From: Actinomycetota bacterium
Lineage (GTDB): Bacteria > Actinomycetota > Geothermincolia > Geothermincolales > RBG-13-55-18
Assembly: GCA_030019255.1 (NCBI GenBank)
Contig: JASEFK010000006.1
Span: 154,553 to 218,552, forward strand
Reading direction: 5' to 3'
DNA length: 64,000 bases
Under the pieces are notes generated by a model. It had not been told where the DNA came from, searched no databases, and saw nothing but the letters and a program-made list of their open reading frames with translations. The position numbers and the translations under genes were made by a program. Below, piece after piece: positions 4,668 through 21,066 of the stretch; position 1 is the stretch's first letter; the number at the start of each line of letters is the position of its first letter.

Positions 4668-6061
4668 CCACCTCCCGCGTACTCATCGTGCAGGGTCAGG
4701 ATATAGAGGTAGGAGGGGATGCCCAGGGCGGAATCCAGGGGATCGCCGGTCGGGCGGCAACGCCCGAAGACGATCCTCTTCCCGTCCGGACCGAAGCACA
4801 TCTCGGTTATCTGGGTGCCGGAGGGACGATACTCGTACGGACCCGTTTCCTCCATGACGTAGACAGGGTCATATTCCGGGTAACCGGGCTCGGTGAAGTG
4901 AGTAAGCCGGGTCTTACCCGATCCGTCGACCCGCACGATGTATATCTCGTCCTCGTGGCCCACGATACCCTTGGTCTCCTTGAAGGCGATGAGGGTGCCG
5001 TCGGGCGAATAAGAGGGGTCCTCGTCGTGCAGCCAGACGCTGTCCGTCAGCCTTTCCACCAGCCTCCCCTCCAGGTCGCAGGTGAACAACTCCCCGGCCA
5101 CCGCCCGCCCGTTGGTCTCGGCGAGCACGGAGTAGCAGCCTATGAAACCCTGGTCTCCGGGCACGAACCCGTTGGCCTCGTTGAGGGTGTAACCCGGGGG
5201 CGGCTCCAGCTTCCTTAAGTTGGAAAGCTCCGGCCCCTCCGGCCCGAAGGCAATATCGGCGTAGACTATCCTCCAGGCCAGCATCTCCTCCCCCACCCGG
5301 TAGGTGAACTGCTCGGAGGAATGGTAGGCACCGGGGTGACCATAGGGCGGGCCGGAGGGCCGGTCTCCCGGAAGAAGGAGGTCCCCCTCCTTCCCGTTGG
5401 GATATTTTTCCATGGAATATTCCTCGCACCAGAAGACCTTGCTCCCATCACCTGAAAAGGAGGGCTCTATGACCGCCCAGTTCTCGGGGTAGTCGGTCAG
5501 CCTCCAGAAGCGGGAACCGTCCGCGGTCATGATCCACACGTTGTGGTTCCGCCCCCAGCCGGGCCGCGCCGATGCACCGTGTTTTAAGCGAGGATAGGCG
5601 GCGTTCTCCGCGGTGAAGATGATGTAATCCCCGCTCGGGTGCCATGCCGACTGGCCGCGGTGCCCGCATCCCTCCAGGGCTTCCTTTCCCGCCGTGAGGC
5701 ATACCGCGTCGCTTCCGTCCGGACGGCAGACGAAAACTTCGTACCGGCCATCCACGAGGTCGGTGAAGGTGATCAGGTCGCGGCTCCAGGACCAGCGGGG
5801 GAAGGATCCGGTGCGGATGCGCTCCACGGTCACTGCCCCGGGCTTTTCCGGCTGGGCCGCTTTCCCTCCGCATCCCAGGTGGAGGGCGACCAGGATCAAA
5901 GTGGCCAGGAGCGCCGGCCGGAACGCAATCCGGCCCCGGGGCACGCCCCCCGGGGAAAAATCGCGGACCTGAGGTTTGAGACCTGCGCTCTTGGCTTCCA
6001 GGCCAGGGTTCCGAAACCCGTCCCGAGCGACATCTCTCCTCTTTCTCAGTCCTTTACGCAT
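4664..6061 (-). CDS. TolB-like / PD40 beta-propeller repeat lipoprotein
   Basis: Repeated PD40-type segments (WHPSGDYIIFTA, SFSGDGSKVFW, YSPDGTLIAF, CFGPDGKRIVF). A lipoprotein signal ...RPALLATLILVALHLGCGG carries a lipobox. The first ~40 codons of the listed ORF are Arg/Gly-rich, so the true start is probably the in-frame GTG near 5944 (MPRGRIAFRPALLATLILVALHLGC...). Confidence 0.7.
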   Translation of the reverse strand: MRKGLRKRRDVARDGFRNPGLEAKSAGLKPQVRDFSPGGVPRGRIAFRPALLATLILVALHLGCGGKAAQPEKPGAVTVERIRTGSFPRWSWSRDLITFTDLVDGRYEVFVCRPDGSDAVCLTAGKEALEGCGHRGQSAWHPSGDYIIFTAENAAYPRLKHGASARPGWGRNHNVWIMTADGSRFWRLTDYPENWAVIEPSFSGDGSKVFWCEEYSMEKYPNGKEGDLLLPGDRPSGPPYGHPGAYHSSEQFTYRVGEEMLAWRIVYADIAFGPEGPELSNLRKLEPPPGYTLNEANGFVPGDQGFIGCYSVLAETNGRAVAGELFTCDLEGRLVERLTDSVWLHDEDPSYSPDGTLIAFKETKGIVGHEDEIYIVRVDGSGKTRLTHFTEPGYPEYDPVYVMEETGPYEYRPSGTQITEMCFGPDGKRIVFGRCRPTGDPLDSALGIPSYLYILTLHDEYAGGG

Positions 6062-6587
6062 CCTGAGCCCCCTGCCCGTTTCCGCACCGGCGGCGCGGAT
6101 TACTTAATCACCGCGATTACAAGCCATTTGGGCGAAGAGCGTTTCGACACATGAATTGTCCCGCTTTACAATACCGCACACTTGCACCTATGCATGATTC
6201 CGCGAATGGAAACCGGCTTACCCTTACCATCATCTTCATCCCAGCACCTCCCGCTATCACTATGCCGGCGCCGCACGATTTCCGGGTCCGATCCTCTACC
6301 TGTCTTATGGCCCGATTTTCGTCCATAAATGTTAAGAATCCTTTATGCGCGGATTAAGCATTTCAACGCCTTGGGACGCTTCATCCAAAGGCGGGACGCA
6401 CGAAGCCGGGGTGAGTTTGCCCGGATGAGCCCGGATATGACCGGCCGGAGAGGACGCATACCTTTTCCGGTTCTATACGCGGCTTCGGCTCTTTAAAGAA
6501 GATTTTTCTCGCGGAAACTCGGGCAGAGATGCATGGTTGATTTTATCTCTCCTCATCCATCTTGCCAGGACACCGAATATATAATAA

Positions 6588-6603
6588 CTTTAGTAAAAGT
6601 GAA
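6588..6603. promoter_or_regulatory. 16-nt motif TTTAGTAAAAGTGAAC (reverse complement GTTCACTTTTACTAAA) in an AT-rich island upstream of the mutase operon
   Basis: Exact 16/16 reverse-complement match to 16264-16279 and a 15/16 match to 24126-24141. All three lie in AT-rich islands 100-500 bp upstream of + strand operons. Confidence 0.5.
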
Positions 6604-6844
6604 CTGAGCTGGTCGGTGGTGCGGCTGCGCACGGCGAGAAGGGTCAGGGGGGCGGGTTGGGAACGGGAATTTGCCGCTCCCTGGGAAATGAACCGTAAGA
6701 GCAGGATACAAGGATGCGGGAATTTATAATCTTTATGTCGGCCGGATGCCATGCTCCTTGCTCCCTGGGCAATCCCAAGGAGACATATCGAGCTTTTAAA
6801 GTTCTACGACCCACGTGCACCACGAGCAGGGAAAGGGGGATGAG

Positions 6845-8608
6845 ATGACCGAGGACCTGGACCGGATAAGCGAGGCGCGCCGTGCCTGGGAGGAGGGGCC
6901 CCTGGCCAAGGCCCTCCAGAGGTTCCCCTACCTGAACAAGGACAGCTGCCGCTTCTACACTCCCCTGGACATCGAGCCCTTCGACTTTTTGGAGAAGGTC
7001 GGCTTCCCGGGCACCTACCCCTTCACCGCCGGCACCTTCCCCATCGAGCCCATGGCCGGCCTGGCCCGCCTGGCCTCCCTGGCCGGGGGAAAGGGGGAGA
7101 TACCCGGGGCCGGTGGCCAGACCCGCGCCGCCATCTACTCCGGGTACGGCACCCCGGAGGACACCCGGGACTACTACAGGGGCCTTATCGAGCAGGGGGG
7201 ACGGGGAGGTCCCAACCTGGCCTTCGACCTCCCCACCCAGTGCGGCTACGACTCCGACCATCCCCTGGCCGAGGGGGAGGTGGGCAAGGTGGGGGTGTGC
7301 GTGGACACCCTGGCCGACTTCGAAATCATCTACGAACCCTACCGAGGGGACCTCGACCTGGACCGCATCGCCTCCAACTTCACCATCAACGCCCCGGCCA
7401 ACGTGATCATCGCCATGTACGCCGCCCTGGCCGAGAAGCGGGGCATACCCCTGGAAAAGTTGCGGGCCACCCCCCAGAACGACATCCTTAAGGAGTACAT
7501 CGCCCGGGGGACCTATATCTTTCCCCCGCGGCACGCCCTGCGCATGTTCCGGGACAGCCTGGTGTTCATCACCCGCCACATGCCCAACGTGAACATCACC
7601 AGCATCGGCGGCTACCACATCCGGGAGGCCGGGGCCACCCGGGAACAGGACCTGGCCTTCTCCATGGCCATCGCCATCGAGTACCTCAGGGTGGGGGTGG
7701 ATGCAGGCCTCCAGGTGGACGAATTCGCCCCCCGCTTCACCTTCAATGCCTTCGGAGGCTCCATGGAGATGCTCAAGGAGATCGCCTTCCAGCGGGCGGC
7801 GAGGCGCATGTACGCCAGGATACTGAAGGAGCGTTTCGGGGCCCGGGACGAGCGGAGCATGCGCATCCGCCAGGCCCTGGGGGCTCACATCGGGCCCTCC
7901 TCCACCACCCTACAGCGCCCTCTGAACAACCTCACCCGGGCGGTCATCGGGGCGGTGGCCAGCGCCCTCTCCGGCGGCCGGCCCCTCCCCTTCCCTCCCT
8001 ACGACGAGCCCCTAGGCCTGGGGTGGAGCCTGGAGGCCCTCCAGCTGGCCCAGGACGCGGGAAGGATCATCGCCTGCGAGGCGCGGCTCCTCGAGTATGC
8101 CGATCCCTTCGCCGGCTCCTACTGCATGGAGTCCCTCACCGACGAGATCGAGAGCGCCGCCTGGGAGGAGCTGGAGAAGATAGAGAAGATGGGCGGGGCG
8201 GTGGCGGCCATCGAGAACGGCTACATGCAGAGGGAGATATCCCGCAGCGCCTACGAGCGCCAGCGGGCCATGGAGCGGGGGGAGAGGCTGGTGGTGGGGG
8301 TGAACTGCTTCACCGGGGAGCACGAGCTGGAGGTGACCACCAACCGGCTGGTCCCCAACCCCTACGACCCCGAGAGGAGGGAACGGGCGGAGGAGAGGCA
8401 GAAGGCCCGCCTTTCGGAGATCAAAAGGTCCCGGGACAACCGGGAGGTGGCCCGGCTCCTCCGGGAACTGGAGGCCCTGGCCAAGAGGGAGGAGGAGAAC
8501 CTCATCCCTCACCTCATCCAGTGCGTCAAGGCCTACGTGACCGAGGGGGAGATATGCGAGGTGCTGCGGGGAGTCTTCGGGGAGTACCAGGCGGTCTCCC
8601 CCTTCTGA
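6845..8608 (+). CDS. divergent acyl-CoA mutase large (substrate-binding TIM-barrel) subunit, methylmalonyl-CoA-mutase family, lacking a fused B12 domain
   Basis: 587 aa. The first half ...YTPLDIEPFDFLEKVGFPGTYPFTAGTFP...AFDLPTQCGYDSDHP... and the C-terminal half with the acidic/Arg-rich coiled tail (LIPHLIQCVKAYVTEGEICEVLRGVFGEYQAV) match the MCM alpha / IcmA architecture. The canonical FTRG(P/V)Y-P-MY motif is replaced by FTAGTFPIEPM. AAAGGGGGA RBS 4 nt before ATG 6845. The B12 domain is encoded separately at 10937. Confidence 0.75.
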   Translation: MTEDLDRISEARRAWEEGPLAKALQRFPYLNKDSCRFYTPLDIEPFDFLEKVGFPGTYPFTAGTFPIEPMAGLARLASLAGGKGEIPGAGGQTRAAIYSGYGTPEDTRDYYRGLIEQGGRGGPNLAFDLPTQCGYDSDHPLAEGEVGKVGVCVDTLADFEIIYEPYRGDLDLDRIASNFTINAPANVIIAMYAALAEKRGIPLEKLRATPQNDILKEYIARGTYIFPPRHALRMFRDSLVFITRHMPNVNITSIGGYHIREAGATREQDLAFSMAIAIEYLRVGVDAGLQVDEFAPRFTFNAFGGSMEMLKEIAFQRAARRMYARILKERFGARDERSMRIRQALGAHIGPSSTTLQRPLNNLTRAVIGAVASALSGGRPLPFPPYDEPLGLGWSLEALQLAQDAGRIIACEARLLEYADPFAGSYCMESLTDEIESAAWEELEKIEKMGGAVAAIENGYMQREISRSAYERQRAMERGERLVVGVNCFTGEHELEVTTNRLVPNPYDPERRERAEERQKARLSEIKRSRDNREVARLLRELEALAKREEENLIPHLIQCVKAYVTEGEICEVLRGVFGEYQAVSPF

Positions 8609-8612
8609 TTGC

Positions 8613-8638
8613 GGCGGAAGGGGGGGCGGCCTTCCGCC
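8613..8638 (+). terminator. GC-rich hairpin (9-bp stem GGCGGAAGG/CCTTCCGCC, 8-nt loop) 5 nt after the mutase large-subunit stop, with no U-tract
   Basis: Read directly: 8613-8621 GGCGGAAGG, loop gggggcgg, 8630-8638 CCTTCCGCC. It sits between the mutase large subunit and the radical-SAM gene. Confidence 0.35.
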
Positions 8639-8740
8639 CGGAGGGCCCGGGCGGGGCGGGCGTCCCGCGGACGGGTGCGCGGAGTTCGCGACCCGGGCGC
8701 CGTGCGGACCCCGGACCGGCATCCGGAGGTGGGGGCGGAG

Positions 8741-10840
8741 ATGGACGAAGGGCAACCCTTGCCGGTAACCGAGAGGGCAAGTCCCGGACCTGAAACGGCG
8801 AAGCCAGCGGAGGAGGGCGCGCTCTTCCGCTACCCCCTGCACCCCCCGGCGGAACCGCGGACCGGCGATCCCCCCCTGGTGGAGTTCACCCGAGGCCTGC
8901 TGCGCGACCTCCTCTCCATCCTCCGCCTCCGGAGCGAAGGAAGGGAGGTGGAGGTGGAGGGGTTCCGCTTCCTGGGCCCGGATAAGGCGGTGCATTCCAT
9001 CCATGTCCCGCCCCGCGAGGGAGCGGAGGAACTCGAAGATTCCGGGATGGCCGGCCCATCCGCGCCCCGTCCTCCCCTCCCCGGATGCCGGGGGGAACAC
9101 CCGGAAGGAAAGGGAGACCTGGGGGCCGGCTCCGATGCAGTCCCCAGCCCGGGGAAGGGGCGATTCCCTCCCGGCGCGGTAAAAGGACTTTTGGCAAGGA
9201 AAGAGATCTCAGAGGCACCGGTCCGGGAAGGGATCCAGGGCCTCCCGCCCTTCCTCAACCGGGAGAACGCCGCCCTCTACGAGCCCCGGTTGGAGTTTTT
9301 GGCCCGGCTGCTGGAGAACCTGCTCTCCCTGGTGCAGCTGGAGGCCGGAGGTCGGCCGGTGGAGGTGGACGGATTCCGCCTGCGCCGCCTCTCCGACTGG
9401 GCGGACGCCCCGGTGCCGAGCGCCCAGGACGTAATCCTTCACGCCGCCGACCGCTGCTCTTGCCGTTGCCGGTTCTGCTACCTGCGGGGTTCCCCGCCCA
9501 CCCTGCATTACCATCCCCCCTTCGACCCGGGGGACGACTGGAGGAGGCTGGAGGCCAGGATTCGTCACTACCGCCCCCGGGCGCGGCGGGGGCTCTTCCC
9601 CACCTTCGGTGGCCCGCGGGAGCCGTTCGCTCATCCACAAATTCTCCCCTTGCTCCGATCCCTCCGCGAGACCACCGATGAACCCTTGCGCCTCTCCACC
9701 AACGGATGCGCTCTAAGTCCCGATCTCATAAGCGAACTGGCGAAGCTGGCCCCCCTCTTTCTGGACCTCTCCCTCAACAGCTCCGACCCCGCCCGGCGCT
9801 CCTTCCTCATGGGTGACCCCGAGCCGGGGAGGGCCATCTCCTCCCTGCCCCGCCTGGCGGAGGCGGGCATCCCCTTCGCCGTGACCGTGGTGGCCTGGCC
9901 GGAGCCCTCCCTGGAGGAGATGCTGGAGGACCTGGGAAGAACCTGCCTGTACGCCGCGGGTTGCGGGGCCCGCATGGTACAGGTCAACCTGCCGGGTTAC
10001 TCCCGGTTCTTCTCCCCGCGACCCCTCTTCGATACCGACGAGGTGTGGGGAGCCGTGGTGCGGCGGGTGCGGGAACTGCGCCAGGACATCCCCTGCCCGG
10101 TGGTGGTGAGCCCCGCCCTCTACGAGGAAAACCTCGTCCGGGAACGGAAGAACCTTGCGGAGGTGATAGGGGTGGTGCCCAACTCCCCGGCCGCCTCCTG
10201 GGGGCTTGAGCCGGGAGACGTCATCCTCCGCCTGAACGGGATCAACGTGTTTAACCGCCCCCAGGCCCGCGACCTGCTCACCCTTTTGCAGGAGAGCGGG
10301 AAGGGGAGGATGTCCATCCTGGTCGACCGGGGGGGTAAGAGGGTGGAGCTGGAGGGGGAAAGAAGCCGGTGCCGCTACCCCTTCGATTTTCATACCGGGA
10401 CCCACCTGGGGGTGGTGTTCATGGGGAGCGGTCTGCGCCTCTCCTACCTGCGGGACCTGGAGGACCTCATCCGCTCCTCTGGGGCGCGCCGGGTGCTCTT
10501 TCTCACCTCCCGGCTGGTCCGCCCCACCCTCGAACAGATGCTGCGCGAACGCCCGCTGAGCCTCCCGGAGGGCGTGGAGCTGCACTTGAGCGTGCCGGAG
10601 AACCGCTTCTTCGGGGGAAACATCATGCTCGGCGATCTTTTGGTGGTGCAGGACTTCATCGATCACCTCCGGGAGTGGAGGGAGAGGAAGGGGTTTGCGC
10701 CCCACCTGGTGGTCATACCCTCCTCGCCCTTCCGCCTCAGCGGCTGGGGGAGGGACCTGACCGGTCGGGTGTATCTGGACATCGCCCGGGAGACCGGGAT
10801 GCGGGTGGAACTCCTGGAATGCGAGGCGGTCATGGACTGA
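8741..10840 (+). CDS. radical SAM enzyme with internal PDZ domain (DUF512-like radical-SAM/PDZ family), inserted between the mutase subunits
   Basis: CxxxCxxC radical-SAM cluster motif C-SCR-C-RF-C at about 9455-9478 (HAADRCSCRCRFCYLRG). PDZ-like segment EVIGVVPNSPAASWGLEPGDVILRLNGINVFNRPQARDLLTLLQESGKGRMSILVDRGGKRV (about 10150-10330). GGAGGTG RBS 9 nt before ATG 8741. The listed ORF start 8609 (TTG) would add a 44-codon Arg/Gly-rich extension overlapping the hairpin, which is probably not translated. Confidence 0.75.
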   Translation: MDEGQPLPVTERASPGPETAKPAEEGALFRYPLHPPAEPRTGDPPLVEFTRGLLRDLLSILRLRSEGREVEVEGFRFLGPDKAVHSIHVPPREGAEELEDSGMAGPSAPRPPLPGCRGEHPEGKGDLGAGSDAVPSPGKGRFPPGAVKGLLARKEISEAPVREGIQGLPPFLNRENAALYEPRLEFLARLLENLLSLVQLEAGGRPVEVDGFRLRRLSDWADAPVPSAQDVILHAADRCSCRCRFCYLRGSPPTLHYHPPFDPGDDWRRLEARIRHYRPRARRGLFPTFGGPREPFAHPQILPLLRSLRETTDEPLRLSTNGCALSPDLISELAKLAPLFLDLSLNSSDPARRSFLMGDPEPGRAISSLPRLAEAGIPFAVTVVAWPEPSLEEMLEDLGRTCLYAAGCGARMVQVNLPGYSRFFSPRPLFDTDEVWGAVVRRVRELRQDIPCPVVVSPALYEENLVRERKNLAEVIGVVPNSPAASWGLEPGDVILRLNGINVFNRPQARDLLTLLQESGKGRMSILVDRGGKRVELEGERSRCRYPFDFHTGTHLGVVFMGSGLRLSYLRDLEDLIRSSGARRVLFLTSRLVRPTLEQMLRERPLSLPEGVELHLSVPENRFFGGNIMLGDLLVVQDFIDHLREWRERKGFAPHLVVIPSSPFRLSGWGRDLTGRVYLDIARETGMRVELLECEAVMD

Positions 10841-10936
10841 GGGGAAGGTGGCCATCCGGAAGACCGAAAGGGATGGGACTAGGTGATGGACAGAGCGTCA
10901 GGAGCGCGAAAAGGTGAAGGACAAGGGAGGCAGGAA

Positions 10937-11353
10937 ATGGCATCGAAGACGGAGGGCAAGGTCATCCGGGTACTTATCGCCAAGCCCGGTCTTGACGGGC
11001 ACGACCAGGGAGCCAAGGTCATCGCCTACGGCCTCAAGGACGAGGGGTTCGAGGTCATCTACACCGGCCTGAGGCGCACCCCGGAGGAGATCGTCAACGC
11101 GGCCGTGGACGAGGACGTGGACGTCATCGGCCTCTCCATCCTCTCCGGGGCTCACCTGAGCATTGCGCGGCGTGTCATGTCCCTTCTCCGGGAAAAGGGC
11201 GTGGAGGACAAGATGGTCCTGGTGGGAGGCATCATCCCTCCCGAGGACATCCCCAAGCTCAAGGAGATGGGCGTGGCCGAGGTCTTCGTCTCCGGGACCT
11301 ATATCTCCCAGGTGGCGGAATTCATCCGCTCCCGGTTGGGTGTCTCTTCCTGA
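10937..11353 (+). CDS. cobalamin-binding small subunit of an acyl-CoA mutase (B12-binding Rossmann domain)
   Basis: [73 protein letters not shown]... contains the DxHxxG B12 lower-ligand motif (LDGHDQG) and the MCM small-subunit fold. AGGGAGG RBS before ATG 10937. Confidence 0.9.
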
Positions 11354-11401
11354 GGCAACCCCGGTTATCTGCACCAGAGGCGGCGTGAGTCGGACAGTGC
11401 C

Positions 11402-12763
11402 TCAACCCTGGTAGGCACGCACCAGCCTATTCACGTGCTCCAGATTCTCCAGATCCCGCAACATCTCCAAGGTGGAATCGGCGACCCGGTAGCTCAAAAC
11501 GCTCCCCACGCATTCGCGGTATTTATCGTAGATCTGCTCCTCGCTCATGGGATTGCCGGGTTCGCCGAGGGGCCTTTCGGCCTTCCCCACCGCTTTCCCG
11601 CCGGACTTCAGGTGCACTACCACCTCGGAGGCGAAAGGGCTAGTGATCTCCCCTTCCAGGTCCTGCCAGTCGAAGCGGCGTATCACATGCACTATCGGCT
11701 CCGAGGTGACCACCTGGTCCCTGAACTGCCCCACTCCCACCTTGCCCCAAAGCAGGGCGGCGGCCACGCAGAACTCCAGGCTAAACTTTCCCTCCGTGCC
11801 CGTCTTCGGCTCGTGGTAGACGAGCACCGATCGCAACCAGGAGGGCACCCGGCACTCCACCCTCTCCACCTCGGAAGCGTCGATATTTCCCATCTTCTTC
11901 CATTCCTCCCTGGCCGCCAGGGCGGCGTCGATAGCGCCCTGGGGGCCGCGGCAGCAGGGATAGGGCTTGTAGGAGAGACCGGGGTCGATGAGCTCATAGG
12001 GCTCTCCGAGGGTCCCGGGTAGCTCCCCCGCTTTCTCCAGGTCGGAAGTGAAGACCCGGGCGAATCCGTTCTCCCCGTAGAGAGCATCCGGGTTGGCGGT
12101 GAACCCCCGGGAGGCCAGCTGGGCGGCCATAATCCCGTTCATGGCCGCGACTCCGGCGTGGAGGGGCTTGGTCATGGTTCCGAAGTTAGCCCGGATGCCC
12201 GTGGCCAGGGAGCAGGAGATGCCTAGGGCATGGACCATCCTTTCCTCGGCGAGCCGCAGGAGCTTGCCGCAGGAGGCGGCGGCGCCCAGGACCCCCAGGG
12301 TACTGGTATGGTGCCAGCCCAGCATGTAGGAGTTCCCGCCCAGGGCCGCTCCGACCTTGGCTGCTACCTCCAGGCCGGCCACGTAGGCCAGTAGGCAGTC
12401 CCTTCCCGGGGACTCCAGAACCTCCCCCAGGGCCAACACGGCCGGGACCAGGGCCACGGAAGGATGGCCCATCATGCGGAAACTGACGTCGTCGTAATCC
12501 AGGGCGTGGGCGGCTGTCCCGTTGGCCAGGGCAGCCCAGGGTGCCGCGCTTTTCTTGAAACCGTAGAAGAGGGTGGCTTCACCCTTTGCACACATGGAAT
12601 CCACCCACTCGGCGGCGATGCGTGAACTCTCATCCTCCAGGCCGGCTATGGTGACCCCCAGGCAATCGATGAACGGGAGCTTGGCCGCCTCCACCACCTC
12701 TCCCGGCAAGTCCTCGTACTTCAGGCCACAGACGAACTTCCCCACTTCCAAGAGCTCGTTCAT
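11402..12763 (-). CDS. MmgE/PrpD-family protein (2-methylcitrate dehydratase / cis-aconitate decarboxylase superfamily)
   Basis: Minus-strand translation MNELLEVGKFVCGLKYEDLPGEVVEAAKLPFIDCLGVTIAGLEDE...HALDYDDV...GHPSVALVPAVLALGE...TKPLHAG... is typical of PrpD/MmgE. An AAGGGGGG RBS 6 nt upstream supports the ATG at 12763. The listed ORF start 13102 adds about 113 junk codons. Confidence 0.8.
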   Translation of the reverse strand: MNELLEVGKFVCGLKYEDLPGEVVEAAKLPFIDCLGVTIAGLEDESSRIAAEWVDSMCAKGEATLFYGFKKSAAPWAALANGTAAHALDYDDVSFRMMGHPSVALVPAVLALGEVLESPGRDCLLAYVAGLEVAAKVGAALGGNSYMLGWHHTSTLGVLGAAASCGKLLRLAEERMVHALGISCSLATGIRANFGTMTKPLHAGVAAMNGIMAAQLASRGFTANPDALYGENGFARVFTSDLEKAGELPGTLGEPYELIDPGLSYKPYPCCRGPQGAIDAALAAREEWKKMGNIDASEVERVECRVPSWLRSVLVYHEPKTGTEGKFSLEFCVAAALLWGKVGVGQFRDQVVTSEPIVHVIRRFDWQDLEGEITSPFASEVVVHLKSGGKAVGKAERPLGEPGNPMSEEQIYDKYRECVGSVLSYRVADSTLEMLRDLENLEHVNRLVRAYQG

Positions 12764-13480: not shown

Positions 13481-15031
13481 GTGACAACGATGAACGTGGG
13501 CAACTGGGCCACCAAGCGGGCGCTCTTCCCGCTCACCAGGGACAAGACGGCCTTCATCAGCGGTGACCGCTCCCTTACCTACACGGAGTTCAACCACCGT
13601 GTTAATCAAGTGGCCAACGGCTTACTGGAGGCGGGCCTCAAGAAGGGCGAGCGGGTGGCCGCCCTCTTCTTCAACAGCATAGAGTTCATGGAGGTGTACT
13701 TCGCCTGCGCCAAGGCGGGGTTCATCTTCATCCCCCTCAACTTCCGCCTCACGCCCCAGGAGCTGAACGATATATTCACCGACACCAATCCCCGGGCCTT
13801 CTTCTTCCACCCCGAGTTCGCGGGCACGGTGGGACAGCTGCGGGAACTCTACCGCGAACCGATAGAGGTTTTGGCCACCGCCGGGGAGCCAGTGCCGGAG
13901 TTCGCCTCCCCTTACGAGGAGTGGCTCTCGGAATTCGGGGAGGAGGAGCCCGCGGTCCACGAGCCCCCGGGCATGGAGGACCCCCAGATGATCATGTACA
14001 CCTCGGGAACCACCGGGCGGGCCAAGGGGGCCGTGCTCCCCCACCGCAAGACCTTCTGGAACACCTTCAACGACACCCTGGAGCTGCTCTTCGACATGGA
14101 GGCCGTATCTCTGGTCTCCATACCCCTGTTCCACTCCGGGGGCCTGAACATCATCACCATGCCCACCTTCTACATAGGGGGCACCACGATCTTCCAGAGG
14201 TTCTGGAACCCCGAGGAGGCCCTGCGCCTCATCGAGCGCCACCGGGTCACCCACTTCGGGGCCGTGCCCACCATGCTCCAGATGATGCTGGACGTTCCCG
14301 ACTTTTCCCGCTACGACCTGAGCTCCCTCAAGGGGGTGGGGGTGGGAGGAGCCCCCGCCTCCCGGGAGCTTTTGGACCGCATCCTGGAGCGGATGAAGGT
14401 GCCCCACCTCATCCAGGTCTTCGGGTGCACGGAGACCTCCATCGTCCTCTCCTGCTCCAACATGGAAAAGATCGGCAGCGCCGGCATCCCCATGTTCCAC
14501 GCCGAGGTCCGGGTGCTCAAGGAGGACGGCACGGAGGTGGTACCGGGATCCGGCGAGGTGGGGGAGATATGCACCCGGGGCCCCTACGTCATGCTCGGCT
14601 ACTGGAACCTCCCCGAGGAGACCGCCGAGGCCATGAAGGACGGGTGGTTCCACTACGGGGATCTGGCCACCGTGGACGAGGACGGGTACGTATATATCGT
14701 GGACCGCAAGAAGGACATGATCATCTCCGGGGGGGAGAACATCTACCCCGCGGAGGTGGAGAAGGTGCTCGCCGAGCACCCCAAGGTGAGGGACGTGGCG
14801 GTCATCGGCATGCCGGACGAGAAGTGGGGGGAGGTGGGCCACGCCCTGGTGCTCCTGGAGGACCCCGAGGACCCCCTGAGCCTGGAGGAGATGGAGGCCT
14901 TCTGTGCGGGGAAGCTGGCCCGTTACAAGATACCTAAAAAGATCACCTTCGTGGATGCCATCCCCCGCACCCTCACCGGCAAGATATTGAAGAAGGAACT
15001 GCGCAGGCTCTACGGCGGGGGCCGGGATTGA
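13481..15031 (+). CDS. AMP-forming acyl-CoA synthetase / ligase (ANL superfamily)
   Basis: AMP-binding P-loop MYTSGTTGRAKGAVLPH, plus the GYWN...ET, GDLAT...DEDGYVYIVDRKKDMIISGGENIYP and TLTGKILKKELR motifs. 516 aa. Confidence 0.9.
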   Translation: MTTMNVGNWATKRALFPLTRDKTAFISGDRSLTYTEFNHRVNQVANGLLEAGLKKGERVAALFFNSIEFMEVYFACAKAGFIFIPLNFRLTPQELNDIFTDTNPRAFFFHPEFAGTVGQLRELYREPIEVLATAGEPVPEFASPYEEWLSEFGEEEPAVHEPPGMEDPQMIMYTSGTTGRAKGAVLPHRKTFWNTFNDTLELLFDMEAVSLVSIPLFHSGGLNIITMPTFYIGGTTIFQRFWNPEEALRLIERHRVTHFGAVPTMLQMMLDVPDFSRYDLSSLKGVGVGGAPASRELLDRILERMKVPHLIQVFGCTETSIVLSCSNMEKIGSAGIPMFHAEVRVLKEDGTEVVPGSGEVGEICTRGPYVMLGYWNLPEETAEAMKDGWFHYGDLATVDEDGYVYIVDRKKDMIISGGENIYPAEVEKVLAEHPKVRDVAVIGMPDEKWGEVGHALVLLEDPEDPLSLEEMEAFCAGKLARYKIPKKITFVDAIPRTLTGKILKKELRRLYGGGRD

Positions 15032-15290: not shown

Positions 15291-16091
15291 ATGAACCAAG
15301 AAGAGGAGCTCCTGGTGGAGGTGAGGGAGCCCCTGGCCTTCCTCACCATCAACCGGCCGGAGCGCCGGAACGCCCTCTCCGTCTCCCTCCTCGTCTCCCT
15401 GGCCCAGGCCCTCCAGGACCTGGCCGAGAAGGGAACGGTGCGCTGCGCCGTGCTGCGGGGGGCGGGGGACCGGGCCTTCTCCGCGGGCATGGACCTCACC
15501 GCCATCCCCGAGGGTCTCCCCGCGGAGGTCCAGGAGCGCATCCAATCCCAGGGCCCCCTGCAGTACGGCCTGGAGGCCATCGAGGAGTGCCCCTTCCCGG
15601 TCATCGCCATGATCCGCGGCTACTGCGTGGGGGCGGGGTGCGAGACCAGCATGGCCTGCGACCTCCGGGTGGGGGCGGAGGACTGCCGCATGGGGATGCC
15701 CCCCGCGCGCCTGGGCATCGTCTATCCCCCCGAGGGCCTGCACCGCTTCCTGCGCACCATCGGCCTGGCCGCCACCCGGAAACTCTTCCTCACCGCAGAG
15801 CTCTTCGGTGCCCACGAGGCCTACCAGATGGGCATGCTGGACTACCTGGTCCCCGTCCCGGAGCTGGAGGCCTTCACCGAGGATCTGGCCCGGCGCATAG
15901 CCTCCAACGCCCCCCTCTCCATCTCCGGGCACAAGCGCATGCTGCGCATGCTCACCCACCCCCTTCCCCTGGCTGAGGAGGAGCGCCGGGAGGCCGATGC
16001 CATCATGGCGCGGGCCCTGGCCAGCGAGGACGCCCGGGAGGGCATCGCCGCCTTCCGCGAGAAGAGGGACCCGGTGTTCAGGGGTAAATAA
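15291..16091 (+). CDS. enoyl-CoA hydratase/isomerase (crotonase fold)
   Basis: LTINRPERRNALS...LRGAGDRAFSAGMDL...IAMIRGYCVGAGCE... show the classic crotonase oxyanion and catalytic segments. GGGAGG RBS. Confidence 0.85.
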   Translation: MNQEEELLVEVREPLAFLTINRPERRNALSVSLLVSLAQALQDLAEKGTVRCAVLRGAGDRAFSAGMDLTAIPEGLPAEVQERIQSQGPLQYGLEAIEECPFPVIAMIRGYCVGAGCETSMACDLRVGAEDCRMGMPPARLGIVYPPEGLHRFLRTIGLAATRKLFLTAELFGAHEAYQMGMLDYLVPVPELEAFTEDLARRIASNAPLSISGHKRMLRMLTHPLPLAEEERREADAIMARALASEDAREGIAAFREKRDPVFRGK

Positions 16092-16748: not shown

Positions 16749-19241
16749 ATGATGTCGGCGGTTGAGATGCGAACCATCGAGGAGATCGAAAAGAGCGGTC
16801 AGTGGTGGTGGTGGGCGGAACACAAGAGGTCGAAACGCCTGGATTACCTGCGCAAGGCGGTATGGAAAAAGGGGGCCAAGGGCTCCGGTTACCAGCCGGG
16901 AGTGAAGGTGGACCTGGAGAGGGCCGTCCTCTTCACCGAGGCCTTCAAGGCCAACGAGCACGACTCCCTGCGCATGCGCTATGCCAAGGCTCTGGCCAAC
17001 GTGTTCGACAACATCACCATCTTTATCCAGGACCACGCCCAGATCATGGGCTACCTGGGTTCCCGGCCCCACACCATCGTGTGGCACCCGGAGATCCTCT
17101 TTCTGCTCAACGAGGACCTGTATAACGACCGCACGGTCATACCTGAGCCTGTGGATGAGAACCTGAAGCTCATCCGGGAGCTCTGCGACTACTGGAACCC
17201 CCAGACGGCGGGGGCCAAGGTCTTCAACCTGGTCCCACCGGAGGAGATCGTCAAGCTCCTAACCGGGGTTATCGGTTGGGGGCTTCCCATCTCCCGCATC
17301 GGCTACGCCACCAAGCAGTGGGACTACATGTTCCGCTTGGGTCTGGAAGGCATCATAGCTGAAATAGACGAGCGTATTAAGGAGGCCGAGGAACGCATTT
17401 ACAACAAGGTGCCCGATCCCGAGGACCTCCCCTACTACGAGAAGCTTGACGTCTGGAAGTCCATGAAGGTGGTGCTGGAGGCGGTCATCCGCTGGGCACG
17501 CCGCTACAGCCGCCTGGCCAGGATCATCGCCGAGCACTTCGAGACCGACCCCCAGCGCAAAGAGGAGCTCCTGCGCATCGCCGAGGTCTGCTGGAAAGTG
17601 CCAGCCAAGCCCCCGGAGCACCTGCACGAGTCCCTGCAGTTCGACCATTTCATCCAGATTGCCTGCCGCTACGAGGCCTGCGAGGGCGCCTGGCCGGCCC
17701 GCCCCGATTACTGGCACGGTCCCTTCTACGACAAGGACGTCAACCGGGACAAGATCCTTACCCGGGAGGAGGCCCTGGATCTCACCGGAGAGTTCCTCAT
17801 CCGCTGCTACGAGGTGGGATGGTTCTGGTTGATGCTGGCCCGCGACACCCTGCAGGGCATCACCGGGACCTGGGTATGGACAATCGGCGGGGTTAACGAG
17901 GACGGGACCGACGCCTGTAACGACATGACCGACTGCCTGCTGGAAGCGGCCCGCCTGGTACGGGTGGCCAATCCCACCTTCGCCTTCCGTTACCATCCCA
18001 ACGTGAGGATGCAGACCCTGCGCCAGGTCTTCGAGTGCATCCGGCAGGGATTGGGATATCCTTCCATGCGCAACGATCCCATCCTCATCACCAACGCCAT
18101 GCATTGGCACAGGCATCCGTTGCGGGAGGCGCGGCGCTGGGTGCACCAGGCCTGCATGTCCCCCTGCCCGGATACCAAACTGGGATGCCAGCCCTTCCGC
18201 ATGGCCAACGCCACCATCATCGCCGCCAAGGCCATCGAGTATGCCCTATTCGACGGGTACGACAACGTGCTCCAGATGCAGTTCGGACCCCATACCGGGG
18301 ATGCCACAAAGTTCGAGACCTTCGAGGAGCTCTACCAGGCTTGGTACACGCAGATCAAATGGATGATGGACACCCTGGTAAAACTGACTAACGGCGGCCG
18401 CTTCATGGCCCAGTTCCTGGACCCCCGCCCCCTGCTCTCCGGACTCTACGAGCGCTGCGTGGAGCTGGGCGTGGACTCCTCCCATCCCTCGGAGCGCGGC
18501 AATTCCTGGATTACCTTCTTCGCCTGGATGGAGACCGGGGACAGCCTGGCCGCGGTGAAGAAGCTGGTTTTCGACGAGAAGAAGTACACCATGGCCCAGC
18601 TCATCGAGGCTCTCAAGGCCAACTGGGAGGGCTACGAGGAGATGCGCATGGACTTCGTGCGCGCTCCCAAGTGGGGCAACGACGACGACTACGTGGACCA
18701 GATCCACATCCGCTGCCACCGCGACGTGGCCAGGCACTCCTGGGAAATAATGGATCCCACCGGGAATCCCTGGCCTCCGCTGCCGGAGAACATCGCCGCC
18801 TACGTGACCAACGCCACCAAGGTTTGGGCGCTGCCCAACGGGAGGAGGCTTGGCGACACCCTCTACGACGGCGGGTGCTCCCCCGGGGCGGGGCTGGACA
18901 AGAAAGGTCCCACCGCCGTCCTGCGCTCGGTGGCCAAGATCGACCACATCGGGGACGTGCGAGCCACCCTGCTCAACCAGCGCCTGTCCCCCCAGCAGCT
19001 GGCCGGCGAGAAGGGCTTCCACATCTGGCACTCCTACATCAAGACCTGGGCCGAACTGGGTATCGACCACGTGCAGTTCAACATGGTGGACAACGAAACC
19101 CTGAAGGCGGCCCAGAGGGAACCGGAGAAGTATCCCGAGCTCATCGTGCGCATCGCCGGTTACAGCGCCCATTTCGTGGACCTGAACAAGAAGACCCAGG
19201 ACACCATCATCGCCCGCAACGTGCAGGAACTGGGCGTATGA
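16749..19241 (+). CDS. glycyl radical enzyme, pyruvate formate-lyase family; X-succinate-synthase-like (fumarate-adding, AssA/BssA-type) catalytic subunit, inferred
   Basis: 830 aa. C-terminal glycyl-radical motif RIAGYSAHFVDLNKKTQDTIIARNV (about 19155). Candidate thiyl Cys loop QACMSPCPDTKLG (about 18151-18165). The fumarate-adding subtype is inferred from context: two small 4-Cys subunits, ferredoxin-domain activases, and adjacent CoA-ligase, mutase and carboxylase genes. Confidence 0.8.
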   Translation: MMSAVEMRTIEEIEKSGQWWWWAEHKRSKRLDYLRKAVWKKGAKGSGYQPGVKVDLERAVLFTEAFKANEHDSLRMRYAKALANVFDNITIFIQDHAQIMGYLGSRPHTIVWHPEILFLLNEDLYNDRTVIPEPVDENLKLIRELCDYWNPQTAGAKVFNLVPPEEIVKLLTGVIGWGLPISRIGYATKQWDYMFRLGLEGIIAEIDERIKEAEERIYNKVPDPEDLPYYEKLDVWKSMKVVLEAVIRWARRYSRLARIIAEHFETDPQRKEELLRIAEVCWKVPAKPPEHLHESLQFDHFIQIACRYEACEGAWPARPDYWHGPFYDKDVNRDKILTREEALDLTGEFLIRCYEVGWFWLMLARDTLQGITGTWVWTIGGVNEDGTDACNDMTDCLLEAARLVRVANPTFAFRYHPNVRMQTLRQVFECIRQGLGYPSMRNDPILITNAMHWHRHPLREARRWVHQACMSPCPDTKLGCQPFRMANATIIAAKAIEYALFDGYDNVLQMQFGPHTGDATKFETFEELYQAWYTQIKWMMDTLVKLTNGGRFMAQFLDPRPLLSGLYERCVELGVDSSHPSERGNSWITFFAWMETGDSLAAVKKLVFDEKKYTMAQLIEALKANWEGYEEMRMDFVRAPKWGNDDDYVDQIHIRCHRDVARHSWEIMDPTGNPWPPLPENIAAYVTNATKVWALPNGRRLGDTLYDGGCSPGAGLDKKGPTAVLRSVAKIDHIGDVRATLLNQRLSPQQLAGEKGFHIWHSYIKTWAELGIDHVQFNMVDNETLKAAQREPEKYPELIVRIAGYSAHFVDLNKKTQDTIIARNVQELGV

Positions 19242-19305
19242 GGGAGATCGCGTTGAAACCGCCGGTGCTACCACCAGCGGGGTCGCTTGAAAAGGGGGTA
19301 GAGCG

Positions 19306-19605
19306 ATGAGCGACTGGGAACAGCTCCGCCAGCAGTGGCTGCAGGGGGCCATCTCCAAGGGGCGCCGTGATATGCCGGAGAAGGCCTGCGGCATTTGCAG
19401 TAACTTCCGGCAGAATTCGGCCTCCGCGGCCGGTGATGGTTTCTGCACGGCCATCAAGATGGGGGAGAAGAACAAGCCGGTCTTCGACAATACCGATGCC
19501 GCCGACTGCCCGCACTTCCGGGAGATCGACCGCGTGCGGACGGACACCAGTGAGTTCATGTGGGATCCCCAGTTCCGGCCGCAGAGGCAGATCCAGGAGA
19601 AGTAG
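19306..19605 (+). CDS. small 4-Cys subunit, candidate FeS-binding beta-like subunit of the X-succinate-synthase-type GRE
   Basis: 99 aa directly after the GRE gene, with an AAGGGGG RBS. Cys ligand pattern C28-x2-C31-x15-C47-x20-C68, comparable to the HiPIP-like small subunits of benzylsuccinate synthase. It is a paralog-like pattern match to 22139-22294. Confidence 0.55.
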   Translation: MSDWEQLRQQWLQGAISKGRRDMPEKACGICSNFRQNSASAAGDGFCTAIKMGEKNKPVFDNTDAADCPHFREIDRVRTDTSEFMWDPQFRPQRQIQEK

Positions 19606-19623
19606 GAGCAGCAACCGGAGAAG

Positions 19624-19851: not shown

Positions 19852-19854
19852 ACT

Positions 19855-20034: not shown

Positions 20035-20118
20035 TTCCCCCGTGGGAGTTCACGCTTTTTCCTGTGACGCTTTCCGGCTTCCCCGGCGTGTCGAGAGAAA
20101 CGGAAAAGGAGTCCTTTC

Positions 20119-21057: not shown

Positions 21058-21066
21058 GGCGGTAAG

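Follow-up and report, generated by a model that had tools for sequence, protein, structure and literature searches.

A cobalamin-domain radical SAM/PDZ protein encoded between the subunits of an acyl-CoA mutase is a conserved partner of one mutase clade and a possible mutase maturase

The window, the whole 64-kb stretch of DNA that was analysed (64,000 nt, from an Actinomycetota bacterium), carries a gene for a 699-residue radical SAM (RS)/PDZ protein between the genes for the large and small subunits of an acyl-CoA mutase. The genes and features are listed below.

6845-8608, plus strand: mutL, acyl-CoA mutase large (substrate-binding) subunit of the 'type-1' clade (PF01642, TIGR00641)
8613-8638, plus strand: GC-rich hairpin GGCGGAAGG/CCTTCCGCC with a 9-bp stem and no T-tract, in the 132-nt spacer (read from the sequence)
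8725-8731, plus strand: Shine-Dalgarno site GGAGGTG, 9 nt 5' of the ATG at 8741 (read from the sequence)
8741-10840, plus strand: radical SAM/PDZ/cobalamin-binding protein, 699 aa (profiles, AlphaFold2 model, Foldseek)
8798-9025, plus strand: N1 module, aa ~20-95, helix and three strands, first N-terminal repeat (alignments, model)
9041-9235, plus strand: low-complexity disordered linker, aa 101-165 (pLDDT <50, mostly alignment gaps)
9236-9445, plus strand: N2 module, aa 166-235, second repeat, common to all family members
9446-10105, plus strand: radical SAM core with CxxxCxxC at aa 239-246 (nt 9455-9478), then Y247 (PF04055 at aa 237-397)
10139-10360, plus strand: RseP/HtrA-like PDZ domain, aa 467-540, between the RS core and the cobalamin (Cbl) domain (PDZ_6, PDZ_2)
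10373-10837, plus strand: DUF512/Mmp10-type cobalamin-binding domain, aa 545-699 (PF04459, profile matches to 9cg2 and 9cg1, motif)
10937-11353, plus strand: mutS, mutase small, B12-binding subunit (PF02310, TIGR00640, DxHxxG)
11402-12763, minus strand: MmgE/PrpD-family protein (PF03972/PF19305)
13490-15031, plus strand: acyl-CoA ligase, AMP-binding (PF00501, 300 bits; NF004837, 500.7 bits, cut-off 476)
15291-16091, plus strand: crotonase-family protein, either enoyl-CoA hydratase (ECH) or ScpB-like acylmalonyl-CoA decarboxylase (PF00378, 169.8 bits)
16749-19241, plus strand: glycyl radical enzyme nearest (1-methylalkyl)succinate synthase MasD (PFL-like and Gly_radical domains)
20119-21996, plus strand: two tandem canonical glycyl-radical activating enzymes, 20119-21057 and 21067-21996 (TIGR02494)

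In profile searches, the mutL product matches MM_CoA_mutase (PF01642, 457.8 bits) and TIGR00641 (482 bits), and its nearest solved structure is HcmA (4r3u, 366 bits). Alignment to 1req shows that the carboxylate-binding residues of MCM are kept, Y98, Q211 and R221 corresponding to Tyr89, Gln197 and Arg207. Type-1 mutL proteins carry a clade-specific, active-site-proximal insertion of 9-22 aa immediately N-terminal to the substrate Tyr. The mutS product matches PF02310 (83.3 bits) and TIGR00640 (169.5 bits), its B12 motif reads LDGHDQG, matching DxHxxG, and its ribosome-binding site AAGGGAGG is located at 10923-10930. By PF01642, the substrate residues and DxHxxG, the flanking genes encode an AdoCbl-dependent acyl-CoA mutase, with alkylsuccinyl-CoA and plain methylmalonyl-CoA as candidate substrates.

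The type-1 mutase of the window is part of an alkylsuccinate (fumarate-addition) catabolic cluster. The glycyl radical enzyme scores 1128.5 bits with MasD (PDB 9o8u) versus 558.7 bits with benzylsuccinate synthase, and the tandem activases both exceed the 174-bit cut-off of TIGR02494 (344.8 and 332.9 bits). The crotonase-family protein is 36% identical to E. coli ScpB and reaches 193 bits with the methylmalonyl-CoA decarboxylase model NF008506, under its 257-bit cut-off; the MmgE/PrpD-family protein likewise scores far under the NCBIfam PrpD cut-offs. Recurring neighbours at 81 loci are the crotonase-family/ECH gene (54), the MmgE/PrpD-family gene (41), a family-III CoA-transferase (32), the acyl-CoA ligase (17), an MmdA-like carboxyltransferase (13) and ACAD (10), together with TRAP/MFS transporters and GntR regulators. 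The radical SAM/mutase pair is often found within anaerobic alkane-degradation gene clusters.

The spacers upstream and downstream of the radical SAM gene measure 132 and 96 nt, longer than in some other lineages. A preliminary description of this DNA, made from the sequence alone, had located the three genes, the GGAGGTG site and the hairpin, and all of these positions were confirmed on the sequence. It had also counted the hairpin, as the gene's own, among the coding signals, but a reading of the hairpin as a sign of independent expression is not supported: the 70% GC spacer with the hairpin folds with a z-score of -1.25, 24 of 200 shuffles fold equally well, and the terminator scan did not score 8613-8638 as a terminator. 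Sequence scans of both spacers found no promoter, terminator or Rfam element. The hairpin is unlikely to be a functional signal, and the radical SAM gene is probably co-transcribed with the mutase.

The 699-residue protein is 100% identical to a protein annotated as 'radical SAM protein [Candidatus Solincola sp.]' (P0001). Its AlphaFold2 model has a mean pLDDT of 85.1 and a pTM of 0.81, and the top Foldseek matches are pfDUF512 (9cg2, 5.5e-13), csDUF512 (9cg1, 2.8e-12) and Mmp10 (7qbu, 1.1e-07). The protein belongs to the radical SAM superfamily, with the CxxxCxxC motif, a Radical_SAM (PF04055) score of 45.4 bits above the 29.5-bit cut-off, and a fold matching RS enzymes; all 78 aligned homologues keep C239, C243 and C246, and at least 90% keep Y247. 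The PDZ domain is recognised by PDZ_6 (37.3 bits, 2.2e-09) and PDZ_2 (3.7e-06), and profile search also matched it to the PDZ domain of Aquifex RseP (1.2e-17) and to DegP/DegQ. The preliminary domain calls, CxxxCxxC radical SAM and PDZ, are confirmed. The PDZ helix 'RPQARDLL' hardly varies within the mutase-linked clade. The 5' third of the gene codes for residues of low complexity, and the linker at aa 101-165 differs widely in length among homologues. The N2 motif EPR...LE..G.PV.VDGFRL is nearly invariant in the homologue alignment. N1 is homologous to stand-alone proteins of 81-96 aa encoded beside short-form relatives (BLASTP, 8e-08; hhalign, 97.6%, E 3.4e-12), and a stand-alone N1-like protein also matches aa 177-214, within N2 (BLASTP).

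The C-terminal domain matches 9cg2 (2.7e-09) and 9cg1 (2.5e-06) in profile searches. With DUF512 (PF04459), it scores 23.6 bits, slightly under the 25-bit cut-off and over profile positions 90-174 only, and a precomputed PF04459 match is present in about 16 of 106 homologues. The domain contains the motif NRFFGGNIxxGDL, in which the invariant L633 aligns to '...NNFFGKTITVAGL366' of csDUF512 (9cg1) and '...NEFFGGNIGTAGL286' of pfDUF512 (9cg2); L366 and L286 are the Leu residues beneath the corrin (PMC11659888). Y247 corresponds to pfDUF512 Y47 and Mmp10 Y23, which, like csDUF512 F95, follow the third cluster Cys and sit between the cluster and the corrin (PMC11659888). The preliminary call of a DUF512-like C-terminus was right, and this domain is now known as a cobalamin binder (PMC11659888). 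All four DUF512 proteins tested bind Cbl, form MeCbl from SAM and release 5'-dA (PMC11659888). Since the C-terminus is a DUF512/Mmp10-type cobalamin domain by fold and motif, the 699-residue protein is a 'class-2' (Mmp10/DUF512-type) cobalamin-dependent radical SAM enzyme, having the C-terminal Cbl domain, the sub-corrin Leu and the aromatic residue after the third Cys. Judging from sequence and fold, cobalamin is very probably bound by the protein itself. The canonical PDZ-RS-DUF512 type (PF04459 sensu stricto) was rejected as an identity, with the score below threshold and the order here being RS, PDZ, Cbl domain. The order N-modules, RS core, PDZ and Cbl domain is a new, undescribed layout.

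The gene for Mmp10 (methanogenesis marker protein 10), the B12-dependent radical SAM arginine C-methyltransferase of methyl-coenzyme M reductase (MCR), lies near the genes of the MCR that it modifies. Like the window protein, Mmp10 has an RS core followed by a C-terminal four-stranded cobalamin domain; an aromatic residue follows the third Cys, and a Leu lies beneath the corrin. Its target, like the partner here, is a large radical or metallo-enzyme. Among class-2 enzymes, Mmp10 alone has a known function, and what it modifies is a protein; its substrate is a protein segment (PMC8828468). The two proteins, however, share only 12-14% sequence identity, Mmp10 lacks PDZ, N1 and N2 and has a four-Cys 'iron loop', and its target is MCR in archaea, whereas the partner here is a bacterial acyl-CoA mutase with a putative modification. 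csDUF512 and pfDUF512 (Wang et al. 2024), the top structural matches, have the FFG..I..AGL/GDL cobalamin motif in common with the window protein. A PDZ domain is present in csDUF512 as well, but the order there is PDZ-RS-Cbl and the PDZ fills out a truncated barrel, in contrast to N1-N2-RS-PDZ-Cbl in the window protein. Unlike the window gene, canonical PDZ-RS-DUF512 genes adjoin der/engA and gpsA rather than mutases (PMC6411480).

Across genomes, the radical SAM gene and the mutase are linked in both directions. Of 58 non-redundant loci with full flanks, 51 have a mutase gene within 8 kb. So do 60 of the 80 loci of the genome set, and mutL, mutS or MeaB is directly adjacent in 47 of these 80; in the metagenome set, the linkage is 45/80 overall and 14/18 with full flanks. 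Sampling from the mutase side, with eight mutL homologues (66-73% identity) picked irrespective of their neighbours, found the radical SAM gene at the loci of seven. The two genes are paired in at least five phyla (Actinomycetota, Chloroflexota, Desulfobacterota, Bacillota and Abyssubacteria) and in no fewer than five gene orders, with spacers down to 6-14 nt in one locus (L062). Only the type-1 mutL adjoins the radical SAM gene; the canonical and 'type-2' copies present at these loci are not next to it. Bare mutL-radical SAM pairs without other pathway genes within 8 kb are seen at two of the loci sampled from the mutase side (L087 and L088, the latter with a truncated radical SAM gene) and in two metagenome loci (L102 and L107), and mutL and the radical SAM gene occur without mutS within 8 kb in 10/58 full-flank loci. 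In a Dehalococcoidia subgroup (L011, L023, L024, L027, L031, L033 and L046), no mutase is present within 8 kb, and the radical SAM gene follows carboxyltransferase, biotin carrier, OAD-beta and ECH genes. The radical SAM gene is missing within 8 kb of one type-1 mutase operon (L174). The radical SAM protein is a conserved, co-inherited, dedicated partner of the type-1 mutase clade and not a chance insertion. The reciprocal linkage bears out the functional partnership that the preliminary description had proposed, and we found no earlier description of this association in the literature.

The preliminary description had further placed the radical SAM gene in a slot normally held by MeaB. Its statement that MeaB is absent holds for the whole 64-kb window, where tblastn with E. 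coli ArgK and the MeaB of a related locus gave no match. A fixed MeaB slot is a premise that holds only loosely, and the idea that the radical SAM gene fills in for MeaB is not supported: since a bona fide MeaB gene shares the operon at at least 14 loci (L086, L173 and 12 of the 80 in the genome set), the radical SAM protein is not a simple MeaB substitute. An identity as MeaB/ArgK was ruled out, as the 699-residue protein has no PF03308/NTPase match and true MeaB coexists elsewhere. Like MeaB/ArgK, the G-protein chaperone that serves methylmalonyl-CoA mutase along with ATP:cob(I)alamin adenosyltransferase, it is an accessory encoded beside the mutase subunits that might serve cofactor loading or repair; unlike MeaB, it has neither a P-loop GTPase domain nor MeaB homology.

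Distant short-form relatives (L170 and L172) are found in RiPP-like clusters with small ORFs and no mutase nearby. These clusters contain other rSAM/SPASM genes, a 50-aa precursor-like ORF, an S8 peptidase and an exporter, and N1 occurs there on its own, as a small protein standing to the enzyme as PqqD does to PqqE. Since these relatives occur without a mutase nearby, the ancestral job of the radical SAM/PDZ/Cbl architecture was probably peptide modification. No precursor-like small ORF was seen beside the radical SAM gene of the window. The small recognition module that is either separate or fused to the enzyme N-terminus resembles the PqqD/PqqE-type RiPP maturases, although N1 and N2 (one helix and three strands in the model) are not recognisable as a PqqD/RRE domain. 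Likewise, genes for RS maturases such as glycyl-radical activases and anaerobic sulfatase-maturating enzymes adjoin those of their protein substrates, as the gene here adjoins that of its presumed one. Unlike these RiPP and RS maturases, the window protein has no SPASM/twitch domain, and its cobalamin dependence and PDZ domain are unusual for such enzymes.

We tentatively prefer the reading that the protein is a maturase modifying the mutase protein, as Mmp10 modifies MCR, with a probability of roughly 0.4; the mutase as substrate and methylation as the reaction are what we infer. Docked through its PDZ domain and N-modules, the enzyme would work on the mutase itself, and the candidate PDZ ligand would be the C-terminal tail of mutL, which is hydrophobic without exception. 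Methylcobalamin would deliver the methyl group and a second SAM would re-methylate the cobalamin, in a chemistry like that by which Mmp10 forms 5-methylarginine in MCR. A protein or peptide substrate is suggested by the PDZ domain, the Mmp10 precedent, the RiPP-like relatives, the detachable N1 and the mutL tail, whose last residue is hydrophobic in 58/58 mutL homologues versus 6/54 for mutS, in a comparison that covered partner-linked homologues. On the other side, the four non-type-1 mutL copies in the surveyed loci also end in a hydrophobic residue, and no covariation is visible between the variable mutL tails and the nearly invariant PDZ helix. It also counts against the maturase that the target residue cannot be named, that acyl-CoA mutases are not known to carry any modification, that the PF04459 score is under threshold, and that the L174 operon lacks the gene. 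The Dehalococcoidia subgroup without a nearby mutase fits a pathway-level role better.

Such a role would be that of a small-molecule enzyme carrying out a radical step (C-methylation, epimerisation or another rearrangement) on alkylsuccinyl-CoA or alkylmalonyl-CoA, with the mutase linkage arising merely from a common catabolic pathway. We consider this a possible, though rather unlikely, alternative. The wider neighbourhood at the 81 loci is a conserved CoA-ester pathway, ECH is the direct upstream neighbour as frequently as mutL (20 loci each), and the Dehalococcoidia gene follows decarboxylase genes and ECH. Against this, the accepted alkylsuccinate route of CoA activation, epimerisation, mutase, decarboxylation and beta-oxidation needs no radical SAM step, the bare mutL-radical SAM pairs lack other pathway genes, the link is restricted to a single mutase clade, and the PDZ and the detachable recognition module suggest a peptide or protein ligand. 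Small molecules are nevertheless the substrates of most characterised Cbl-dependent RS enzymes (PMC12931638). Activation of the MasD-like glycyl radical enzyme 6 kb away is very improbable, even though JGI labels several homologues 'pyruvate-formate lyase-activating enzyme': two canonical TIGR02494 activases directly follow that enzyme, and a glycyl radical enzyme lies within 8 kb in only about 7/80 genome and 2/80 metagenome loci. The radical SAM/PDZ protein itself matches no activase model (TIGR02494 and related, which describe small RS proteins of ~250-310 aa with ferredoxin-like inserts). An unrelated insertion splitting the mutase operon, which the preliminary description had kept as its alternative, is hardly tenable. 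The longer spacers of the window and the low-complexity 5' third of the gene would fit it, but the neighbourhood tallies refute it, the pairing recurs in at least five phyla and at least five gene orders, no mobile-element genes flank the gene, and the spacers carry no promoter or terminator signals.

Repair factors encoded beside AdoCbl enzymes, such as MeaB and the diol-dehydratase reactivases, are a known theme, and the idea of a cofactor maturase or repair factor in the preliminary description is retained as a rival that we regard as doubtful. The DUF512-like domain would hold cobalamin, AdoCbl would be re-formed from cob(II)alamin and the SAM-derived 5'-deoxyadenosyl radical, and the mutase would be loaded or repaired. 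This radical recombination, without ATP or a Co(I) step, would make the protein adenosyltransferase- or reactivase-like rather than MeaB-like, and the co-occurrence of MeaB would be expected if an adenosyltransferase, not the gating GTPase, were replaced. Both proteins need B12, the gene lies between or beside the mutase subunits, and the bare pairs and the loci without mutS are consistent with this reading. DUF512 domains bind Cbl base-off with the Leu below the cobalt, they can carry AdoCbl (38-44% of the bound cofactor), and 5'-dA lies above the cobalt in pfDUF512 (PMC11659888); that AdoCbl, however, was derived from the E. coli host. Furthermore, we found no physiological radical SAM route to AdoCbl described in the literature, the RiPP-like relatives lack a nearby mutase, and mere cofactor holding needs neither a PDZ domain nor N-modules. 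The specific form of a SAM-powered adenosylation and repair module, capturing cob(II)alamin, re-forming AdoCbl and passing it to the mutase, is less likely still; under it, the protein might even be the cobalamin-carrying subunit in the lineages that have mutL and the radical SAM gene but lack mutS.

[quoted passage not shown] Only Mmp10 among the class-2 members has a known substrate, and the type-1 acyl-CoA mutase is a concrete and testable candidate substrate or partner. If the preferred maturase reading is true, it would give the first described case of a post-translationally modified acyl-CoA mutase. Cofactor handling, if true, would be a new route for coenzyme B12 loading, and an adenosylation and repair module would form a direct biochemical bridge between the two 5'-deoxyadenosyl radical routes of biology. 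On either reading, the protein is an unrecognised and widely conserved component of the clusters for anaerobic degradation of alkanes (alkylsuccinate) and related dicarboxylates in subsurface bacteria, and the radical SAM partner should be allowed for in any reconstitution of the proposed alkylsuccinyl-CoA mutase step.

The gene that separates the large-subunit gene (mutL) from the B12-binding small-subunit gene (mutS) of the acyl-CoA mutase encodes a radical SAM/PDZ protein (rSAM). Profile matches bear out the gene positions and domain calls that the preliminary description gave for these three genes.

6845-8608, plus strand: mutL, acyl-CoA mutase large subunit, 587 aa (PF01642, 457.8 bits; TIGR00641, 482 bits)
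8741-10840, plus strand: rSAM, 699 aa (Radical_SAM, 45.4 bits, above threshold; PDZ_6/PDZ_2; DUF512 below threshold, 23.6 versus 25 bits)
10937-11353, plus strand: mutS, B12-binding subunit, 138 aa (TIGR00640, 169.5 bits; DxHxxG motif)

The rSAM protein is 100% identical to the database entry 'radical SAM protein [Candidatus Solincola sp.]', which identifies the source of the window as an uncultured actinomycete. The Shine-Dalgarno sequence GGAGGTG noted for its gene is present at 8725-8731, and so is the 9-bp stem of the described hairpin at 8613-8638. However, the hairpin lacks a T-tract and the predicted fold of the mutL-rSAM spacer is no more stable than those of composition-matched shuffles (z = -1.25); since a scan of both spacers also found no promoter-like, terminator-like or Rfam elements, an independent rSAM transcription unit with its own hairpin is unsupported. 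An Rfam scan of 6000-11500 returned only two matches, both at chance level, and no cobalamin riboswitch or other known RNA reached gathering scores across the whole window.

A 2024 study established that the DUF512 domain binds cobalamin: four such proteins took up the cofactor, used SAM to form methylcobalamin and released 5'-deoxyadenosine, and the crystal structures 9cg1 (csDUF512) and 9cg2 (pfDUF512) are Mmp10-like (PMC11659888). The AlphaFold2 model of the rSAM protein, built with 78 homologues, has a pLDDT of 85.1 and is confident except in two disordered stretches, and its best structural matches are pfDUF512 (5.5e-13), csDUF512 (2.8e-12) and Mmp10 (1.1e-07). At the sequence level, the DUF512 structures were reached only by the family profile (9cg2 at 2.7e-09, 9cg1 at 2.5e-06), as a solved-structure search with the single sequence gave PDZ matches only. 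NRFFGGNIxxGDL, the family's best-conserved motif, aligns with '...FFGKTITVAGL366' of csDUF512 and '...FFGGNIGTAGL286' of pfDUF512, placing the invariant L633 at the position of the leucine beneath the corrin ring. Y247 directly follows the third cluster cysteine, like Y47 of pfDUF512 and Y23 of Mmp10. On the basis of the fold and profile matches, the L633 motif and Y247, we file the rSAM protein as a putative class-2 (Mmp10/DUF512-type) cobalamin-dependent radical SAM enzyme; from sequence and model, it is predicted to bind cobalamin.

While canonical DUF512 proteins have the order PDZ, radical SAM and DUF512, the rSAM protein consists of an N-terminal module (N1), a disordered linker, a related module (N2), the radical SAM core, PDZ and the cobalamin domain. 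Its sub-threshold Pfam score places it outside canonical DUF512, whose members neighbour der and gpsA and not mutases (PMC6411480). The linker (9041-9235, residues 101-165) is a low-complexity stretch rich in proline, glycine and glutamate, predicted to be disordered (pLDDT < 50), and close homologues have linkers of about 0 to about 100 aa. Among 1.84 billion representatives searched, 457 relatives were found at E <= 1e-30; the best 150 of these were all below 1e-100, mostly with near-full profile coverage. We found no description of the family, its domain order or its mutase linkage in the literature. The structural class of the rSAM protein is known, but its architecture and its conserved partnership with the mutase are new.

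Tabulation of gene neighbourhoods, as proposed in the preliminary description, revealed that rSAM recurs beside B12 mutases in both sampling directions, and the adjacency is more than chance. Among 80 genome loci retrieved with the family alignment, at least 60 have a mutase subunit gene within 8 kb, and the immediate neighbour is mutL, mutS or MeaB in 47. In an independent metagenome set with many short contigs, 45 of 80 loci have a mutase within 8 kb, rising to 14 of 18 among loci with 5 kb or more of sequence on each side. After removal of near-identical loci, 51 of the 58 loci with full flanks (88%) are mutase-linked (mutL and mutS, 38; mutL only, 10; mutS only, 3; neither, 7). From the mutase side, rSAM lies beside or within the operon for seven of eight mutL homologues (66-73% identity), which were chosen only for long contigs and varied taxa; the exception is locus L174.

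The gene order varies with the lineage: mutL-rSAM-mutS in Actinomycetota, Abyssubacteria and several Desulfobacterota; ECH-rSAM-mutL-mutS in Chloroflexota, where ECH is a crotonase-family gene; rSAM-mutS-mutL-mutL in Desulfobacterales; mutL-mutS-MeaB-ECH-rSAM in Peptococcaceae and other Bacillota; and mutL-mutS-rSAM-MeaB in Desulfovirgula. A bare mutL-rSAM pair stands among unrelated genes at L087, L102 and L107, and also at L088, where the rSAM gene is truncated. This recurrent pairing across lineages, with a single mutL clade, excludes the unrelated insertion that the preliminary description had considered, and we give a chance insertion a negligible probability.

In ten of the 58 full-flank loci (L028, L036, L063, L067, L073, L087, L132, L137, L151 and L159), type-1 mutL and rSAM occur with no mutS within 8 kb. 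In these genomes mutS may lie at another locus, or the cobalamin domain of the rSAM protein itself may matter. The L174 operon, which has no rSAM within 8 kb, ends at an ISL3 transposase and is surrounded by genes for an isocitrate-lyase/PEP-mutase-family protein, aconitase subunits, two PrpD-like proteins, DctP, a thiolase and a 3-hydroxyacyl-CoA dehydrogenase; it is a natural 'minus' case, useful for comparison. A Chloroflexota-like layout (PrpD, ligase, TRAP transporter, ECH, rSAM, mutL, mutS, CoA-transferase) was seen at L085, on a contig binned as the archaeal Candidatus Methanosuratincola sp., and reflects either mis-binning or horizontal transfer.

The preliminary description had placed rSAM in the slot of the chaperone MeaB. 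MeaB is indeed absent from the window (tblastn with two MeaB queries, zero matches in 64 kb), but functional substitution is rejected because both genes coexist in the same operons elsewhere: a genuine MeaB gene is present in the rSAM operon at 12 of the 80 genome loci and also at L086 and L173. Profile searches detected no GTPase features in the rSAM protein. A glycyl-radical activase identity was rejected by curated-model searches, canonical activases being encoded at 20119-21996, and has next to no probability.

The mutL linked to rSAM always belongs to one clade (type 1) at the 80 genome loci, with an insertion of 9-22 residues that is lacking in canonical or other mutL copies at the same loci. 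Type-1 proteins have '...RAxxYSGYGTxEDTRDYY' in place of the canonical '...PWTxRQYAGF' and GGPNL in place of TGLSV, and are unusually conserved (66-73% identity between phyla). The insertion and motif lie just before the equivalent of Tyr89 of methylmalonyl-CoA mutase (window 7010-7140, mutL residues ~55-98). In the alignment, the carboxylate-binding residues of that enzyme are kept in the window mutL (Y98 for Tyr89, Q211 for Gln197 and R221 for Arg207), which fits a succinyl-CoA-type substrate. The Desulfobacterales-type loci L029, L038, L054, L160 and L162 have rSAM and mutS, then two type-1 mutL copies in tandem, and the cluster also contains a second, divergent mutase pair (identity to the window genes: mutL 33-36%, mutS 48%). 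At L001, an 80-nt direct duplication of the mutL 3' end (7705-7782, encoding ...ITEGEICDVLREVFGEYQAVSP) occupies the spacer before rSAM; no start codon was evident on inspection, and a remnant or an assembly artefact is the probable explanation.

The sole class-2 enzyme whose function is known, Mmp10, methylates a protein at an arginine residue (PMC8828468), and the reactions of DUF512 enzymes are stated to be unknown in recent reviews (PMC13331322, PMC12931638). The most distant rSAM family members (33-39% identity, short form) have no adjoining mutase, and two of three inspected (L170, L172) lie in RiPP-like clusters. These clusters contain extra rSAM/SPASM genes, an S8 peptidase, an MFS exporter and a 50-aa ORF whose product combines an acidic leader with a Cys-rich C-terminus ending ...YAYEMCCCGKRFS. 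Proteins of 81-96 aa encoded beside short-form members (L170, 7589-7867; L171, 9616-9906; L172, 6721-6966) share homology with the N1 module, which in the long form is part of the enzyme (BLASTP 8e-08; hhalign 97.6%), so N1 homologues are either stand-alone or fused, as PqqD is known to be relative to PqqE. By profile comparison, the rSAM PDZ domain is RseP/HtrA-like, a type whose ligands are hydrophobic C-termini. Of the mutL homologues, 58/58 end in F, L, V, I or M, compared with 6/54 for mutS and 0/64 for the crotonase. The PDZ helix barely varies whereas the mutL tails do, so comparing the two gave no covariation signal. The PDZ domain, the RiPP-context relatives and the stand-alone N1 homologues point to a protein or peptide ligand rather than a CoA ester.

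We tentatively favour, at a probability of about 0.4, a maturase: by homology and context, the rSAM protein would dock on the type-1 mutase via its PDZ domain and N-modules and modify this predicted target by cobalamin-dependent radical methylation. However, in a Dehalococcoidia subgroup rSAM follows decarboxylase genes and ECH, and no mutase gene lies within 8 kb, the type-1 operon L174 lacks rSAM, and the 58/58 tally of hydrophobic mutL tails has no control. A small-molecule step in a CoA-ester pathway seems rather unlikely, even with the wider neighbourhood being of that kind: over 81 loci, crotonase occurs at 54, MmgE/PrpD at 41, family-III CoA-transferase at 32, ligase at 17, an MmdA-like carboxyltransferase (with biotin carrier and OAD-beta) at 13 and acyl-CoA dehydrogenase at 10, and transporters recur. 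Cofactor handling, in which a SAM-derived 5'-deoxyadenosyl radical and cob(II)alamin in the DUF512-like domain would regenerate adenosylcobalamin for the mutase, is in our view improbable. Both proteins need B12, DUF512 proteins can hold AdoCbl (PMC11659888), and the mutL-only loci and the coexistence with MeaB agree with this role, but no route of that kind has been described and the relatives in RiPP contexts argue against it.

In the window, the mutase genes precede a putative alkylsuccinate pathway.

11402-12763, minus strand: MmgE/PrpD-family gene, downstream of the three genes
13490-15031: acyl-CoA ligase, likewise downstream
15291-16091: crotonase-family gene, likewise downstream
16749-19241: glycyl radical enzyme; best solved relative by far, (1-methylalkyl)succinate synthase MasD (PDB 9o8u)
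19306-19605 and about 19855-20034: small subunit-like ORFs downstream of the glycyl radical enzyme
20119-21996: two tandem canonical glycyl-radical activases
24916-26829: pyruvate-carboxylase-like carboxyltransferase/biotinyl subunit
26834-28174: biotin carboxylase

The glycyl radical enzyme scores 1128 bits to MasD and 559 bits to benzylsuccinate synthase, and the genes at 16749-21996 form a complete alkylsuccinate-synthase-like module in a Candidatus Solincola (Actinomycetota) genome. A MasD-like enzyme lies within 8 kb of rSAM at about 7 of 80 genome loci, at L089 and at 2 of 80 metagenome loci. Alkylsuccinyl-CoA is the proposed mutase substrate of the fumarate-addition pathway of anaerobic alkane degradation, the basis of the pathway assignment here; the window mutase could act on it, or on plain methylmalonyl-CoA for fumarate regeneration. 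The recurrent MmgE/PrpD-family gene scores 46 bits against a curated PrpD cut-off of 950, and its product might dehydrate, decarboxylate or epimerise a substituted succinate. Genes for biotin ligase, carboxyltransferase/biotinyl subunit, biotin carboxylase and acyl-CoA dehydrogenase (23182-28174 and 44036-45187) may serve the same pathway by regenerating fumarate and by beta-oxidation. Since a full-text search found no paper with both 'Geothermincolia' and 'alkylsuccinate', anaerobic alkane activation may be unreported so far in this lineage. The rSAM protein would be a missing component of anaerobic alkylsuccinate catabolism, and its family would offer an orphan class of enzymes a substrate that can be tested.
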